A stretch of DNA of 50,922 nt from Escherichia phage AV106: the sequence record OR352937.1. One strand, given 5' to 3'. Under the pieces are notes generated by a model that ran no database searches, was not told the origin of the DNA, and saw nothing but the letters and a program-made list of their open reading frames with translations. The stretch's first letter is position 1. Each line of letters starts with the position of its first letter. The position numbers and the translations under genes are program-made. Below are positions 2,537 to 42,215 of this stretch, in pieces.

Positions 2537-2989
2537 ATGAATATGAAACGTATCGCAGAGTCTACTGGTGAAATCGATAAACGTCACATCAATGGTAACA
2601 ACGGAACACGACGCGGTAAAGATAAAAAGCCTCGCCAGCGCTGCGGATTTTATATCCATAAAGAAGAAACGCGCGCAGGACTGAGAGCGCGATTGGATGC
2701 TCTTATTGAATATTATGGTGGTCCGGCGGCTTGCGCAAAGGCTCTGAAAGTTAGCAACCAGACGGTTCAAGGGTGGAAGGATCGAAATATGATTTCCTGG
2801 CAAGGCGCTGAAGCGGCGCATCGCGCTTATCGCCGACAGGGTTGCAAAGGATTTCGGGCCGCATGGCTGCGATTCGATCTGAAGTTTGATGGGAACGGCA
2901 AGTGCCTTGAGAAGCGCTGCAAAAACAAGAAGTTTATGCGGGTCGTGAAGAAGGAAGATATTGGAACGACAAATAGCATTTTTAGTTAA
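2537..2989 (+). CDS. HTH DNA-binding protein (Cro/YdaS-like), candidate regulator
   Basis: Start moved to ATG after RBS AGGAGA; GGPAACAKALKVSNQTVQGWKDRNMIS looks like a helix-turn-helix; basic C-terminus; followed by a strong terminator. Confidence 0.4.
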   Translation: MNMKRIAESTGEIDKRHINGNNGTRRGKDKKPRQRCGFYIHKEETRAGLRARLDALIEYYGGPAACAKALKVSNQTVQGWKDRNMISWQGAEAAHRAYRRQGCKGFRAAWLRFDLKFDGNGKCLEKRCKNKKFMRVVKKEDIGTTNSIFS

Positions 2990-3016
2990 AACAAACGACG
3001 CGTAGCGGGTTAACAT
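2971..3016 (+). promoter_or_regulatory. Dyad-motif promoter for the primase gene, embedded in a terminator hairpin
   Basis: AATAGCATTTTTAGTTAAAAC, then 22 bp, then TAACAT in the loop of the 2997..3040 hairpin. Confidence 0.45.
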
Positions 3017-3040
3017 CCTTCTACGCGTTTTTTATTTTGG
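2997..3040 (+). terminator. Intrinsic terminator after the HTH gene
   Basis: Stem ACGCGTAG...CTACGCGT followed by TTTTTTATTTT. Confidence 0.6.
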
Positions 3041-3050
3041 AGATCTGGAA

Positions 3051-3986
3051 GTGAACGAAGAATTTATGATGTTTCAGAAAGAGGACGTTTTACCGTACAT
3101 GAAGGGGTTATGGCGCGAGGCTTTCCAATCAATCTGCGGATTGCCGAATGATGTTTTTAATAAGAAGCACCAACCCTGCCCAAACTGCGGCGGTAAAGAC
3201 CGCTTTCGCTGGACTGATAACCTGAACACCCCGGGCGACGGCGGCGCGATCTGCAACTCATGCGGTAACGACTCTGGTATTGGCTGGCTGATGAAATTAA
3301 CTGGCATGCCGTACAGCGAATGTATAAACATCCTGGGGAGATTTCTCGGCAAGGTTCCGCAGGAATACATTGTCAAGGCAAACAAGAAAGCGCGCCGAAC
3401 TCCGGTATCAGGTGTCAATGTCATGATGGCAGATCATAAGGCGGTAATGAAAGTTATGGAGCGTACAGAGAAGCGAGTAAACACACCTCTAAGTATTTTT
3501 GAGTCACTACCCACTGAATCATTCGACGTTGGCGTAAAGCGTCGAGAAGATGGCGGGGAGAGCGTATTTCACACTATCCCGTGTCAACTTGTGCATGAGG
3601 ATGGGCTTGATGGCGAGTTTTGCAATATTTTGATTATTGACGAGGAAGGAAGGGAGTCATTTTACGCTAAGAAATACACAAGTTGCTCGGTTGCCGTGAC
3701 TGGTAAAACTGAAAAGGCGATCTACTTATGCCTGAACTGGATTGATGCTCAGCATATTGCATTTCACACAAAGCAAGAGGTATGGGCCTGCTTCACTCCT
3801 GAAAACCTAGAAATGGTTGCGTACAGGTATAAAGGTGATCGAGAAGTAAGGGTGGCATGCGAACCTTCGGACAAGGAGACTTTATACATGGCAGACGACC
3901 GACAATTAAAAATAATCATCCCAAATCCGGGAGGATACCGCTCAGGAATGCAATCCAAATTATTCTCAGCAAGCGATCTACTCTAA
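3051..3986 (+). CDS. DNA primase-like protein (zinc-binding N-terminus)
   Basis: 311 aa; CPNCGGKDRFRW...CNSCG zinc-finger-like motif typical of phage/plasmid primases; GTG at 3051 or ATG at 3066. Confidence 0.55.
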   Translation: MNEEFMMFQKEDVLPYMKGLWREAFQSICGLPNDVFNKKHQPCPNCGGKDRFRWTDNLNTPGDGGAICNSCGNDSGIGWLMKLTGMPYSECINILGRFLGKVPQEYIVKANKKARRTPVSGVNVMMADHKAVMKVMERTEKRVNTPLSIFESLPTESFDVGVKRREDGGESVFHTIPCQLVHEDGLDGEFCNILIIDEEGRESFYAKKYTSCSVAVTGKTEKAIYLCLNWIDAQHIAFHTKQEVWACFTPENLEMVAYRYKGDREVRVACEPSDKETLYMADDRQLKIIIPNPGGYRSGMQSKLFSASDLL

Positions 3987-4008
3987 CCGCCTTCGGGCGG
4001 TTTTTTGT
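3984..4008 (+). terminator. Intrinsic terminator after the primase gene
   Basis: CCGCC-ttcg-GGCGG followed by TTTTTT. Confidence 0.65.
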
Positions 4009-4014
4009 TGCCAG

Positions 4015-4043
4015 TTGCAAGACTCATAACACAATGATAAAAT
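4015..4043 (+). promoter_or_regulatory. Sigma70-like promoter for the tail fibre gene
   Basis: TTGCAA, 17-bp spacer, TAAAAT; a dyad-motif copy (4051..4065) lies in the 5' UTR. Confidence 0.5.
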
Positions 4044-4086
4044 CATTGCTTAGCAATTTATGCTATTTACTTAAGGAGTTTATACT

Positions 4087-6189
4087 ATGGCTTTATATAG
4101 ACGCGGTACAGCATCAATGGATGCAGACGGCACGGTTCGCGGAACCGATACGAAATGGAAAGATCAGCTTGCTTTGATTCGAGTCGGTGCAACTATCGTA
4201 TTCCTAGAGCAACCAATTAAGCTGGCGGTAATCAGCGATATTGTGAGCGACACAGAGTTAAAGGCTATCTCTACGGATGGTCAGACTGCCGCTGACGGTA
4301 AGTATGTAATCTTGCTTAACGATTCATTGACCGTTAACGGGCTTGCTCAAAACGTTGCTGAGACTCTTAGATACTATCAAAGCAAAGAGACTGAGATCGC
4401 TGGGGCAATGGATATCATTGCGAGCCTGGATATGGATAACCTTAACCGTATCGTTGAGGAAATTAAGGCGAACAAATCAGCCGCAGAAGCTGCGCAGAAT
4501 CAAGCGGAGCTTGCTCGCGACGCATCTGCTGCAAACCGTGATGCCGCAAGCCAATTTGCAACATCGGCAGAGCAAAGCAAGGATGCAGCAAAGACCAGTG
4601 AAACGAACGCCAACAGCGCTAAGACCGCCGCCGAAACAGCTAAATCTCAGGCCGTAACCGCTAAAGACCAGGCCAAAGGCTTTCGGGACGAGGCTGAAGG
4701 CTTTGCGAACAGCGCGGACGCCTCGAAAAAAGTGCCGTATGCGGGCGTCACTGTCAGCGCGCCGACTGGCATGGCGGATATGCTTAAGCGGTTACGCGAT
4801 TCTGTTAAAGGCGGTTTTTGGCGCGTTGAGGATATTTCGCAGTTCCCATCTGGCGAAACGACCCCCTTCAAATACGGCTCGGGAGTGTGTGGGGGCGCTG
4901 GGGATACATTCTTTGCCGTCAACGTTGATTGGCGGACTTCTCGCGTTAAAGTTTTCTCAGGAAACAATAACGCGATTAACGGCACGTCAGGCAACGTGAG
5001 CGCTATTGAACTGGCGAAGCTGGGTGCTAACGGTGATGTCGCGATCGGAGACGGCGGGACAGGTGCATCGACAGACTATGGAGCGCGCGCAAACCTTCAG
5101 GTCATGCTAGAAAAACAAGCATCATTGACTACGGAAGATCTTAACAGCCTGAAAGGTGATAAGTCTGGATTTTATTATACTGCCGCGAGCGTCAACGCAA
5201 CGCCGGAGCGTAATTATCCCGTTCAGGACGCAGGTTGTCTACTTGTTCAGCGCACTGGCACTAACGATCCTAGAAGCTGCATACAAACGTACACCTCACA
5301 CAGTACCGGTCGAAAATGGATTCGCTGGCTTAGCAATGGAGCAACCGAAGCATGGTCCAAATGGTACGAGATTTATAACTCGGGGTCGTCGCCGACTTTT
5401 TCCGGAGTGGTCACTGGCTCTGCGGTAACAGCTAAGGGCGACAATGCCGAAGCTAGTGTCCGTGTTATTGCCGATACAGGCGGTAAATATAGTGCTCGTA
5501 TTTCTGTAACGAATAACGCTACAAAGAGAAGTGCTAATTTAGACCTCTCTGATGACGGTACGCTAAGCACCCCCCATATAAATTCCGTCGGGGGTATAGA
5601 CAGCCAGGGCGGGATGCTTTTGCACAAAGTGCCGTACCCGGCAATAGGCTTTCGCCCAAACCGGTATACCTCACCAGACACACAACTTGGTGCATTTACT
5701 AAGTTTGAGGTTTCGGGGCAAGATGGGGAGGTGGCGTATGTATCTCTGTCGCGGCATTACGGTACAGGTGCGGCAGAAGGGGCAATGTATGTTATGTTCC
5801 CCAACACAGGCGGCACGTTGGCTTTGCAGGGGACTTCAGGTATTAATTACAAGAAAAACATTGTTGACGCCAAAGTCAACGAGGCTCTCGATAGAATAAC
5901 GGGACAGCGATTGGTAAACTTTGTATATAAAGACGATGAACAGGAGCGCGTTCGCTTCGGTATTATCGCCGAAGAAGCGGAATTAATAGCGCCGCAGTAC
6001 ATCAAGCACCATCAGACACCTTACGAGGATATTATTGACGAAGATGGAAACAAAATCGGAGAGAAAACACGGGATAGACCATCCGTCGATGTAAACCCAA
6101 TCGTCATGGATTTGATGGGGTGCGTTCAATATCTAAATAAGCAGGTGGAGGAATTGAAAGCTGCCTTAGCGGCACTGAATAAAGCATAA
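4087..6189 (+). CDS. Tail fibre protein with C-terminal intramolecular chaperone (peptidase S74-like) domain
   Basis: 700 aa; RBS AAGGAG; Ala/Gln-rich coiled-coil shaft; C-terminal RVRFGIIAEEAELIAPQYI...LNKQVEELKAALAALNKA resembles the self-cleaving chaperone domain of tail spikes; strong terminator follows. Confidence 0.65.
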   Translation: MALYRRGTASMDADGTVRGTDTKWKDQLALIRVGATIVFLEQPIKLAVISDIVSDTELKAISTDGQTAADGKYVILLNDSLTVNGLAQNVAETLRYYQSKETEIAGAMDIIASLDMDNLNRIVEEIKANKSAAEAAQNQAELARDASAANRDAASQFATSAEQSKDAAKTSETNANSAKTAAETAKSQAVTAKDQAKGFRDEAEGFANSADASKKVPYAGVTVSAPTGMADMLKRLRDSVKGGFWRVEDISQFPSGETTPFKYGSGVCGGAGDTFFAVNVDWRTSRVKVFSGNNNAINGTSGNVSAIELAKLGANGDVAIGDGGTGASTDYGARANLQVMLEKQASLTTEDLNSLKGDKSGFYYTAASVNATPERNYPVQDAGCLLVQRTGTNDPRSCIQTYTSHSTGRKWIRWLSNGATEAWSKWYEIYNSGSSPTFSGVVTGSAVTAKGDNAEASVRVIADTGGKYSARISVTNNATKRSANLDLSDDGTLSTPHINSVGGIDSQGGMLLHKVPYPAIGFRPNRYTSPDTQLGAFTKFEVSGQDGEVAYVSLSRHYGTGAAEGAMYVMFPNTGGTLALQGTSGINYKKNIVDAKVNEALDRITGQRLVNFVYKDDEQERVRFGIIAEEAELIAPQYIKHHQTPYEDIIDEDGNKIGEKTRDRPSVDVNPIVMDLMGCVQYLNKQVEELKAALAALNKA

Positions 6190-13967: not shown

Positions 13968-14014
13968 GATGTTTACCTTTTTGTGCTATTTATCGGTGGA
14001 CTCATTATACAGGC

Positions 14015-14614: not shown

Positions 14615-15345
14615 AATTTAAGATCCTTATGGCGAACGATTAAAACGGTATGATCCTGATACCATCCAGAATAAATATCCCTGCGAGATAGCTTGCCGAA
14701 GGCATGATGCAAGATCTGATTATCTCCCAGGTAAATCCCTGCGTGGTTCCATACCGGAACGTTTTGCCCTATCTGCATGATTACCATATCACCGAATGAA
14801 GGATTATTCTGATCTGGAATCTCAACGAAGCCGTCCTGCTTGTAATAATCCTGATAGAGATTAATTCCGTACTCAGGTTTCCACCATTCAAAATTCAATC
14901 GGCGATCGCGCAATTCTACTCCGTGCTCTTTGTGCCACGCCATAACAAGACCGTAACAGTCGAATGATCCTAATGACCACGGACGACCAATCAGAGGTAA
15001 TTTCTCTGGCTTCACAAATCGCATATCCCCTTCCGGCACGCTAACAATAATCCAGGTAACTTCCATCTCGTTGCACATGCACGTATCGTGAGCGCTTGGT
15101 AGAGTTGTAGCCCCCTCTCCTGTGTGGCTGTGAACAATTGCTATTGTTGTTGATTCCGCATGGTCCTCAATGCAAGCGTATTGTACGGAATCCATCATGA
15201 AATGATTCTCGGGATCACGATGCACATTATCAATGCGATGGTATTTTTGCACGCGGCCCTTTTGGGTTACTACCCCGCAGCATTCGCGGGGGTATTCTTC
15301 CTGAGCGTGAGTCATAATTTCAAGTTTAATTTTTGCACTAATCAT
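14611..15345 (-). CDS. Tail assembly protein (lambda K-like, MPN/JAMM plus NlpC/P60)
   Basis: Start moved to ATG behind RBS AGAGGA; JAMM-like HSHTGEGATTLPSAHD motif; C-terminal Cys/His peptidase-like region. Confidence 0.7.
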   Translation of the reverse strand: MISAKIKLEIMTHAQEEYPRECCGVVTQKGRVQKYHRIDNVHRDPENHFMMDSVQYACIEDHAESTTIAIVHSHTGEGATTLPSAHDTCMCNEMEVTWIIVSVPEGDMRFVKPEKLPLIGRPWSLGSFDCYGLVMAWHKEHGVELRDRRLNFEWWKPEYGINLYQDYYKQDGFVEIPDQNNPSFGDMVIMQIGQNVPVWNHAGIYLGDNQILHHAFGKLSRRDIYSGWYQDHTVLIVRHKDLKL

Positions 15346-23839: not shown

Positions 23840-23930
23840 GATTACTTCTCCTTAGTTAATAAAAAAGCCGTGATTATGTTCACAGCTTCAATAATAGCAC
23901 TTTTTGTTAAAGCGTCAAAGTGTTTTTGTG

Positions 23931-30836: not shown

Positions 30837-30888
30837 AAATCCATCCTCTTTGTTTAACATTTAGTGCTATTTTACCATATTGCAGGCA

Positions 30889-39488: not shown

Positions 39489-40064
39489 TTACTTCTCCTC
39501 ATCCAGTAAATGTGAGCGGAATTGCTCGACCAGCTTATTGAGATCGGACACCGAGATATTGCTACCTTCAAAATCCCTCAAATCGATTTTGAACGCCTCA
39601 ACCTTCGCATTGAACACGTCGGCTATGCTCTTTCGCTTCCTACCTCTCTTGCCCTGTTTAGCTTCGCCTATGGCCTTCTCTGCTTCCTCGCCTTCGAGTT
39701 CGGTTATGAATATCGTCACCCCGTCAACCTGATCGCGGTTGATTCGCACAGATACGGCCTTATTGTGCGCCTTGAGCATGTGGCGCTTGATGATATTGGA
39801 CACGTACGACGCGGTGAGTCTCTCGAGCAACCAGGCTGATCGAGATGTGTACTCGTTAACGACTGCCTCATCGATCTGGTCATCGTTAAGTTCCACGCCC
39901 TGAGTAGCCTTTACAATCTCGGCCTGCTCATTGACGTACACTTCAACCATTTGCTTTCCAGTGACTGAGAAGTCATTCCCTGATTGGTGGATTTCAATCG
40001 CCTTTCGAATATAGTCCGGCAGGTTGAGTTCAAATTCTGTCACTTCTTTAAGCTGAGTTTTCAC
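39489..40064 (-). CDS. Hypothetical protein, first gene of the minus-strand early array
   Basis: 191 aa; GTG start with RBS GAGGT; C-terminal basic patch KQGKRGRKRK; adjacent to the repeat-rich control region. Confidence 0.4.
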   Translation of the reverse strand: MKTQLKEVTEFELNLPDYIRKAIEIHQSGNDFSVTGKQMVEVYVNEQAEIVKATQGVELNDDQIDEAVVNEYTSRSAWLLERLTASYVSNIIKRHMLKAHNKAVSVRINRDQVDGVTIFITELEGEEAEKAIGEAKQGKRGRKRKSIADVFNAKVEAFKIDLRDFEGSNISVSDLNKLVEQFRSHLLDEEK

Positions 40065-41953: not shown

Positions 41954-41984
41954 GAACACATCAACCAATCAGGAGAATCGCCAG

Positions 41985-42215
41985 ATGGCAATCAAACATC
42001 CCGGATTAAAGAAAGCAATCCAGCGAGCAAATGACGAGGGATTTATTGTATATCGCACACATTACGGTCACATGGGTGGACTTAAAGAGCATCATACAAA
42101 GGTTGAGCTTGTGGACTTGTGGGAGGATTACGATACATTCCAGTACATCGCCACGTCTGACGTAGAGGCGCAAGTGAAATACATCAATGACACTATTGAT
42201 AGCTTCAGAGGGTAA
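41985..42215 (+). CDS. Hypothetical protein
   Basis: Start moved to ATG (MAIKHPGL) behind leader AACCAATCAGGAGAATCGCCAG; dyad motif and TATAGT upstream. Confidence 0.45.
   Translation: MAIKHPGLKKAIQRANDEGFIVYRTHYGHMGGLKEHHTKVELVDLWEDYDTFQYIATSDVEAQVKYINDTIDSFRG

Follow-up and report, generated by a model that had tools for sequence, protein, structure and literature searches.

A predicted primase promoter nested within the terminator of a regulator gene in the T1-like Escherichia phage AV106

In this study, we analysed the junction between a helix-turn-helix (HTH) regulator gene and the primase gene downstream of it in Escherichia phage AV106, a Tunavirus (T1-like), using a 50,922-nucleotide (nt) stretch of sequence record OR352937.1, referred to throughout as the window. 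Two signals probably share some 70 bp of DNA at this junction: an intrinsic terminator of the regulator transcript and, nested within it, a factor-dependent primase promoter that belongs to a family built on a dispersed 21-nt repeat. The terminator and the repeat family are already on record, each separately. New relative to the accessible literature are the link between the repeat and a -10 element at fixed spacing, the geometry of a dyad at -42, the nesting of terminator and promoter, and the dependence of the hairpins on upstream genes; none of these four links was found in that literature, a scope that does not cover the 2004 T1 genome paper. We regard the element as a variety of activator-type sigma-70 promoter combined with an intrinsic terminator, not as a new category. 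The 1.2 kb that flank it are 89-94% identical to most of 67 matching phage records, among them T1, the Shigella Sfin phages and SA30RD.

The hairpin at the junction is non-random, and the terminator is real as a sequence feature. In its outer stem, ACGCGTAG (2998-3005) pairs with CTACGCGT (3021-3028), extended by G2997.T3029, and a T6AT4 tail (TTTTTTATTTT) comes next; the inner stem pairs GGG with CCT around an apical loop of TTAACAT (3010-3016). The fold reaches -17.2 kcal/mol, with a z-score against shuffles of -4.3 over 44 nt and -2.8 over 86 nt. A GC-rich hairpin followed immediately by a U-rich run is what defines an intrinsic terminator, and a rho-independent terminator is annotated at this site in the GenBank records of T1 and SA30RD, and as T57 in TLS; no promoter is annotated at the hairpin in any of these three records. 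A simple terminator scan overlooked it because the loop exceeds the size limit of the scan: 15 nt lie between the outer arms, versus mostly 3-6 nt in 17 annotated terminators of T1. Those T1 terminators also lack a central TAnnnT hexamer, with the exception of the capsid-gene terminator, whose loop is spanned by CATAAT and which is another case of nesting with a promoter. Rfam 15 gave zero hits at the gathering score in the window, and only chance-level hits between 2900 and 3100. A likeness of GGGTTAACATCC to a tRNA T-loop or anticodon loop was dropped, as loop length and key bases differ between lineages.

Relatives carry this stem as 18 distinct sequences that covary, changes in one arm being compensated in the other. 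We measured the covariation by folding each sequence separately and by an arm-swap test: 6.94 of 7 positions were complementary when a stem kept its own arms, and 3.54 of 7 when arms were swapped. G.U pairs are present in 17 of the 18 stems, pointing to an RNA hairpin of the sense strand, and a T-run or T-rich tail is kept after the hairpin in all 18 stem lineages. RNAalifold, run on a MAFFT alignment of the junctions, returned a consensus structure of 0 pairs because the stems are out of register in that alignment.

The upstream half of the predicted promoter is an element described in phage TLS, whose reannotation lists a direct repeat of 21 nt, aaATAGCACnnnTTGnTAAAA, at 21 sites, where it runs in the direction of transcription some 76 nt ahead of start codons; it is also present in T1, Rtp and Rogue1 (PMC11447400). 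Only three canonical promoters were found in TLS, leaving some 20 conserved repeats unexplained, and the authors left the function of the repeat open while suggesting a stoperator, an enhancer or an UP element (PMC11447400). The copy at the regulator-primase junction of the window, aaATAGCATTTTTAGTTAAAA, is the same element: it has zero mismatches to ATAGCAYNNNTWGNTAA at 2973-2989, lies co-oriented on the plus strand with its first base 78 nt before the GTG at 3051, a distance similar to that in TLS, and is orthologous to DR10 of TLS, which also sits at a regulator-primase junction. Its sequence includes the TAA stop codon of the regulator gene. The TLS paper (PMC11447400) does not connect the repeats with a -10 element at a fixed 22 nt, a dyad at -42, hairpins or T57; these connections are drawn here.

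A degenerate pattern of the repeat matched 31 times in the window, against 4.3 expected. In 21 of these matches [TC]AnnnT follows TWGnTA at 21-23 nt (at exactly 22 in 18 of them), the background rate being 0.10. Across four genomes from three genera, namely the window, T1, TLS (Tempevirinae) and Klebsiella phage RAD2 (Webervirus), 71 copies have a TAnnnT hexamer at 22±1 nt, 64 of them at exactly 22, and an A stands 7 nt past the hexamer, at the predicted +1, in 61. Columns that played no part in selecting the copies are conserved as well (G-14 in 43 of 53, T-10 in 42, C-3 in 41, a pyrimidine at -1 in 49 and A+1 in 46), and the information profile is strongest at T-12, A-11 and T-7. Both this profile and the start-site rule are those of sigma-70 promoters. 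The family has no -35 element, positions -35 to -30 reading AAAAcn, and the core of the repeat, TAGCA (-49 to -45)-N5-TGCTA (-39 to -35), is a dyad centred at -42. Copies in the window begin 70-84 nt before a start codon with a ribosome-binding site (RBS), which leaves leaders of 20-34 nt, and about half of them have a full TGn extended -10. We therefore propose that the repeat is the upstream half of a predicted promoter class, with about 20 members per genome, that would combine an operator-like core at -42, a TAnnnT -10 element and an A start.

The primase copy falls into the same register. TAGTTA (2983-2988) is followed by a 22-nt spacer and by ggt-TAACAT, with the hexamer at 3011-3016, G at -14, T3022 and A3023 at -1 and +1, and a leader of 28 nt, so that spacing, G-14, the -1 pyrimidine, A+1 and leader length all agree with the family; the hexamer itself has the A at position 2 and the T at position 6 of a sigma-70 -10 element (4 of 6 matches). 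An earlier note on this DNA, made from the letters alone, had described a dyad overlapping the stop codon of the HTH gene, TAACAT exactly 22 bp later in the loop of a strong terminator, and the primase RBS and start within a further 25 bp. The hexamer does lie in that loop, with stem arms and T-run in place and the fold z-score given above, and the GGAG at 3039-3042 and the GTG at 3051 follow closely, the latter 23 nt past the stem. The distance of 22 holds if TAGTTA, ending at 2988, or the stop codon is taken as the point of departure; counted from where the 21-mer ends, it is 18 nt. As for the dyad, the TAA at 2987-2989 does lie within AATAGCATTTTTAGTTAAAAC (2972-2992), and what overlaps it is a copy of a dispersed direct repeat: an inverted-repeat search at the primase copy found none, its half-sites TAGCA and AGTTA matching at 3 of 5 positions, and a local dyad at 2972-2992 was rejected on that ground. 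The element is thus a family member where the note had seen a unique local dyad, and the nested design is a norm of the family, not a peculiarity of primase.

The note had also supposed that termination and initiation use the same DNA and that an upstream factor-binding element governs primase expression. Both ideas gained support. We compared 27 distinct junctions, taken from relatives with primase identities of 52-98%, and found the AGCA of the repeat, A-11 and T-7 invariant and T-12 at least 90% conserved (alignment A2), so that the hexamer keeps its T-12, A-11 and T-7 over a set of junctions in which the stem changes 18 times. Its variants (TAGAAT, TAAACT, TATCAT, TAAAGT, TAGATT, TATATT, TATTAT, TATGAT, TAATAT and TACTAT) differ solely at positions where -10 elements vary; CATTAT also occurs. 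The distance from repeat to hexamer is fixed at 22±1 nt at primase junctions, the spacing shared with the 71 copies. Much better cores occur in other lineages, for example TGGTATCAT, a near-consensus extended -10, and a full TGn is present at the orthologous junctions of lineages L020-L034 and of L035 and L037. The equivalent of +1 is a purine in most of these relatives and T or C in L015, L016, L023 and L041; A3023 is a predicted start. The T1 primase coding sequence is annotated with the identical choice of start codon, a GTG equivalent to 3051, and in TLS the combination of DR10 and T57 matches the design of the primase junction. The common spacing, a hexamer that follows the repeat, and the operator-like placement of repeats elsewhere in the genome all point to a factor-binding element upstream of primase.

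Two other readings of the same bases were tried and set aside. A promoter reported by the scan, TTAACA (3010-3015)-N17-TATTTT (3033-3038), was rejected, since its start at about 3045 would remove the RBS; its supposed -35 is also not conserved, reading GTAACA in L012 and belonging to unrelated loops elsewhere. A sigma-54 reading of AGCAC...TTGC was dropped, the essential GG being absent.

Hairpins around the hexamer or shortly ahead of it are a trait of the family, yet a signal separate from the promoter. In the window, the hairpin z-score falls below -2 in 15 of 20 family copies versus 5 of 60 control segments. Three copies have their hairpin wholly inside the spacer with the hexamer still 22 nt from the repeat, so that it is the repeat and not the loop that fixes where the hexamer lies. 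The eight copies with no co-directional gene upstream, which are first in their operon, have no hairpin (mean z -0.47), whereas internal copies have z < -2 in 52 of 63 cases (mean z -3.28; Mann-Whitney p = 3.5e-5). First-in-operon copies nonetheless retain repeat, hexamer and +1. It follows that the hairpin serves the RNA of the upstream gene and is dispensable for the promoter. The sense strand folds more stably than the antisense strand in 56 of the 71 copies, and a DNA hairpin promoter of the phage N4 kind was rejected on the strength of this bias and of the hairpin-less first-in-operon copies.

The T-run is rare among family copies: a full U-run is seen at the primase junction, and T1 41957 is the other clear case. 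At T1 41957-42000 and at TLS T62 (39625-39670) a hairpin occupies the spacer, and a TATTAT hexamer comes within or just after the T-rich tail of the annotated terminator, with a short T-run before the hexamer at T62; we take these two sites to represent a second mode of overlap between a terminator and a repeat-type promoter. At most internal copies (in the window for example 32701-, 33996-, 37438- and 43777+, and likewise in T1, TLS and RAD2) strong hairpin arms flank the -10 element and there is no U-run; for upstream transcripts such hairpins may mean 3'-end protection, processing or weak termination.

Which protein would bind the repeat? The regulator, which has a conserved basic N-terminal arm, is the candidate. 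It matches Pfam P22_Cro at E = 5.5e-5, below the curated cut-off, and its AlphaFold2 model is a confident one (pLDDT 81); in Foldseek, the core resembles the all-alpha Cro proteins of Xfaso-1 and N15 (TM score 0.70-0.74, E = 0.02-0.2). As dimers, proteins of this kind recognise operators with dyad symmetry. No significant match came from searching solved structures with the regulator sequence, and the T1 record labels the protein a 'transcriptional regulator'.

That the repeat behaves like an operator is suggested by the variety of places it takes up around promoters: centred at -42 in about 18 of them, at +1 to +17, inverted within a spacer, and in the 5' untranslated region (UTR) of the regulator gene. 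The second arrangement is found at 4015-4066 of the window, after the primase terminator (3985-4002) and just ahead of a tail-fibre-like gene at 4087, where a canonical TTGCAA-N17-TAAAAT promoter with TG is followed at +1 to +17 by a perfect palindromic repeat copy, TTAGCAATTTATGCTAT; this copy is predicted to be an operator in repressor position. On the minus strand it points back into the primase gene. The third arrangement is that of the major-capsid-gene promoter, TTGACG-N16-TATTAT (window 23864-23918, minus strand; T1 15062-15121), which has an inverted copy in its spacer. A 10-bp terminator hairpin lies directly after the capsid promoter, and the predicted start falls inside its 5' arm, another nested promoter-terminator design.

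The fourth arrangement joins the regulator and helicase genes. The regulator -10 element, TATAAT (2480-2485), and that of the helicase gene on the minus strand, TATTAT (2486 to 2481), overlap face to face, and the helicase repeat (2508-2524) falls at about +17 to +33 of the regulator transcript, a layout conserved in TLS and RAD2. Such a divergent region would have a switch-like, autoregulatory geometry. The equivalents of the regulator promoter are canonical as well (TTGACT-17-TATCAT, P57, in TLS; TTGTCA-16-TATAAT in RAD2), and the TLS regulator gene carries one of the only three canonical promoters of that phage (PMC11447400).

We propose the following mechanism. The regulator transcript would start at the canonical host-type promoter at 2456-2485, and RNA polymerase arriving from there would transcribe both hairpin arms and the U-run and then stop. 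A polymerase that initiates at about A3023, within the 3' arm, would produce RNA that cannot form the hairpin because the 5' arm is missing, and would pass through a U-rich 28-nt leader into the primase gene. In this way primase would no longer depend on the immediate-early regulator transcript and would instead answer to the repeat-binding factor, which is most likely a class-II-type activator and possibly the regulator itself. The rigidity of the 22-nt spacing favours activation through contact with RNA polymerase. That a promoter acts at 3023, how well the terminator works, in which direction the factor regulates and which protein it is are all inferred from sequence, and some read-through into primase may add to its expression.

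Several observations weigh against this proposal. By sigma-70 consensus the primase promoter is weak: in addition to a 4/6 -10 hexamer, it reads GGT in place of TGn, with G-14 alone, and AAAACA (2988-2993; 3 of 6 matches) in place of a -35, and it falls below the threshold of the promoter scan. Within the family it ranks 49th of 53: its core scores 3.7 bits where 15-22 is typical, and its repeat has a degenerate right half-site, AGTTA. The repeat could repress instead of activate, and the roughly one half of the family with a full TGn extended -10 might fire without any factor. The stop codon lies just 7 nt before the hairpin, and a ribosome terminating there may impair transcription termination and permit read-through. 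The Foldseek E-values on which the Cro resemblance depends are weak, and the phage encodes further HTH proteins besides the regulator. Literature searches returned no 5'-end, 3'-end or transcript mapping for any T1-like phage and, on the repeat motif, nothing besides the TLS paper (PMC11447400).

One alternative is a plain attenuating terminator, with partial read-through of transcripts from the regulator promoter as the sole source of primase, whose level stays low, and with hexamer and repeat irrelevant to initiation. The terminator is indeed strong and conserved, the local core promoter is poor both by sigma-70 standards and within the family, the stop codon 7 nt from the stem could allow ribosome-dependent read-through, and the E. 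coli rpsU-dnaG operon likewise has a terminator ahead of a primase gene. We consider this unlikely, since it leaves unexplained why A-11 and T-7 never vary although the stem around their loop takes 18 forms, the fixed distance of 22±1 nt to the repeat, and the near-consensus extended -10 elements of other lineages; moreover, typical T1 terminators have loops of 3-6 nt without a central TAnnnT, the only one with a loop hexamer (CATAAT) being the capsid-gene terminator that is nested with a promoter. Somewhat more plausible, though still improbable, is that the nested promoter is real and the repeat-binding protein is a repressor, with host polymerase using the extended -10 unaided and the factor later silencing primase and other early genes in a stoperator-like shut-off. 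G-14 in 43 of 53 copies, many with a full TGn, and the clear repressor positions of the repeat at other promoters fit this idea, and a stoperator-like role was proposed by the TLS authors (PMC11447400). Steric repression has no need of a rigid 22-nt spacing centred at -42, which suggests stereospecific contact with polymerase; the primase copy and others without TG and -35 should be nearly inactive alone; and occupancy of the repeat in the divergent region would favour the helicase promoter over that of the regulator.

The remaining two alternatives make the hexamer something other than a promoter element. A loading site for antitermination of the Q or AlpA kind, at which a repeat-bound factor engages sigma-70-paused polymerase at the -10-like hexamer and carries it through into primase, would account for the close grouping of DNA site, -10-like element and terminator, and phage or prophage antiterminators that act from DNA sites are known (AlpA and lambda Q). 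It is nevertheless very unlikely: some 530 nt separate the site from the regulator promoter upstream, a distance at which retention of sigma-70 is low, most family copies have no terminator, and the conserved Y-1/A+1 and the 20-34-nt leaders fit initiation, not pausing. A lambda Q-type site combines a factor site inside the promoter with a sigma-dependent pause element in the first transcribed stretch and a terminator past the start; with the hexamer at that distance and the predicted local start inside the 3' arm of the terminator, the arrangement here is a different one. The least credible of the alternatives is a purely RNA-level element, in which repeat and loop motif are recognised in the regulator mRNA, for processing, stability or as a nut-like site, and no initiation occurs. 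Sense-strand hairpins that are the more stable in 56 of 71 copies, and that depend on a co-directional gene upstream, would be expected of it. It does not predict a repeat that at the capsid-gene promoter is inverted and upstream of the local start site, conserved positions that match the sigma-70 -10 information profile and the start-site rule, first-in-operon copies that lose the hairpin and keep repeat, hexamer and +1, or the absence of an Rfam match.

Class II activator sites, such as those of lambda cI at PRM and CRP at galP1, have a dyad near -42, a poor -35 and often an extended -10. The promoter family described here resembles them in its dyad centre at -42, its missing -35 and its often extended -10. 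Against the class II position near -41.5, the family consensus is centred at -42, and the primase copy has a degenerate right half-site and no local inverted repeat. The site sequence, unlike these examples, is unrelated to cI or CRP sites and occurs in about 20 copies per 50-kb genome, and activation is our reading of its position. In T4 middle promoters, a MotA box centred at -30 replaces the -35, together with a host-type TAnnnT -10, and requires an AsiA-remodelled sigma. A phage-specific upstream box in place of the -35 at many promoters is common to both systems, but here the box is a dyad with its centre at -42. The E. coli rpsU-dnaG-rpoD operon has an intrinsic terminator before dnaG, and the junction in the window is similar in having a GC-rich hairpin and a U-run right after a stop codon, which would limit transcription into a primase gene; it differs from ordinary gene-end terminators in its 15-nt loop, which holds a conserved predicted promoter element. 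In phage N4, a phage RNA polymerase recognises hairpin promoters in their DNA form. The association of a hairpin with a promoter recalls N4, whereas the hairpins described here are dispensable in first-in-operon copies and biased towards the sense strand. T1-like phages encode no RNA polymerase (PMC11447400).

The features of the locus are collected in Table 1.

Table 1. Features of the helicase-regulator-primase region of the window
Feature	Position	Strand	Remarks
Helicase gene	424-2442	minus	
Divergent control region	between helicase and regulator genes		
Regulator promoter, canonical sigma-70-type, TTTAAA-N18-TATAAT	2456-2485	plus	promoter scan, 10/12 matches
Predicted helicase promoter, repeat-type	repeat copy 2508-2524; -10 hexamer 2486 to 2481	minus	in regulator 5' UTR
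Regulator gene, 150 aa, HTH	2537-2989	plus	stop TAA 2987-2989
Dispersed 21-nt repeat copy aaATAGCATTTTTAGTTAAAA	2971-2991	plus	-52 to -32 of predicted primase promoter; core centre -42
Terminator hairpin	2997-3029	plus	outer stem 2997-3005/3021-3029; inner stem 3007-3009/3017-3019; apical loop 3010-3016
Predicted primase -10 hexamer TAACAT	3011-3016	plus	unpaired in terminator loop; G3009 = -14
Predicted transcription start	A3023	plus	T3022 before it; third base of hairpin 3' arm
T-run TTTTTTATTTT	3028-3038	plus	tail for upstream transcripts; U-rich leader for primase transcripts
Shine-Dalgarno GGAG of primase gene	3039-3042	plus	also annotated as RBS in T1
Primase gene, GTG start, 311 aa	3051-3986	plus	zinc-ribbon primase domain, PF08273, E = 5.6e-16

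Upstream open reading frames mostly end within or just before the repeat (aTAGcac or ttgcTAA). In regulator homologues the variable C-terminal tail (...STNS*) is translated repeat, here 2971-2989; the regulators of some lineages stop ahead of the repeat, and its DNA is therefore conserved across reading frames. Two further copies on the minus strand, 30854-30870 and 13973-13989, adjoin the genes for the terminase small subunit and a J-like tail fibre, with 5-19 nt between repeat and start codon. Each shares bases with the RBS or with the predicted start of an extended -10-like site (TGGTAAAAT, TGTATAAT) located after a terminator, and their distance to the genes is too short for family-type promoters.

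Among distant relatives with primases about 30% identical (L079-L083, at about 2400-2500; Salmonella phage Segz_1 is one of them) there is no regulator-terminator junction. L081-L083 have two direct repeats of the GTTTCATGT type beside a canonical TACAAT -10 upstream of primase, and in L079 and L080 the sequence upstream of primase is unrelated; primase control in this group appears to be a different system. In one Webervirus contig (L060, 2380-2500), coding-looking sequence abuts the primase start, and repeat, hairpin and T-run are all absent.

The arrangement at primase could be extended to a general gene-junction cassette, in which 3'-end hairpins wrapped around the -10 element of the next promoter would stop or process arriving polymerase at every junction, maybe with sigma-70 pausing in place of the U-run, and in which a single Cro-like protein, bound at -42, would switch on about 18 promoters and, bound at +1 to +20, would shut off late ones. 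We think it doubtful that the cassette holds in this general form; if true, it would provide a single-operator logic for the whole temporal programme of a classic T phage.

Altogether, the primase junction would be the clearest nested terminator-promoter case of its promoter class, a natural case of two opposing transcription signals in one 70-bp element. Since mutations in the loop should separate termination from initiation, the element bears on the design of compact synthetic insulators. The transcription programme of T1, among the original T phages, is essentially unmapped. Reading the repeats as promoter halves would let early and middle transcription units be mapped, in a testable way, throughout the Drexlerviridae, a family in wide use for phage therapy and for screens of defence systems, and would also yield a candidate master regulator together with its operator.

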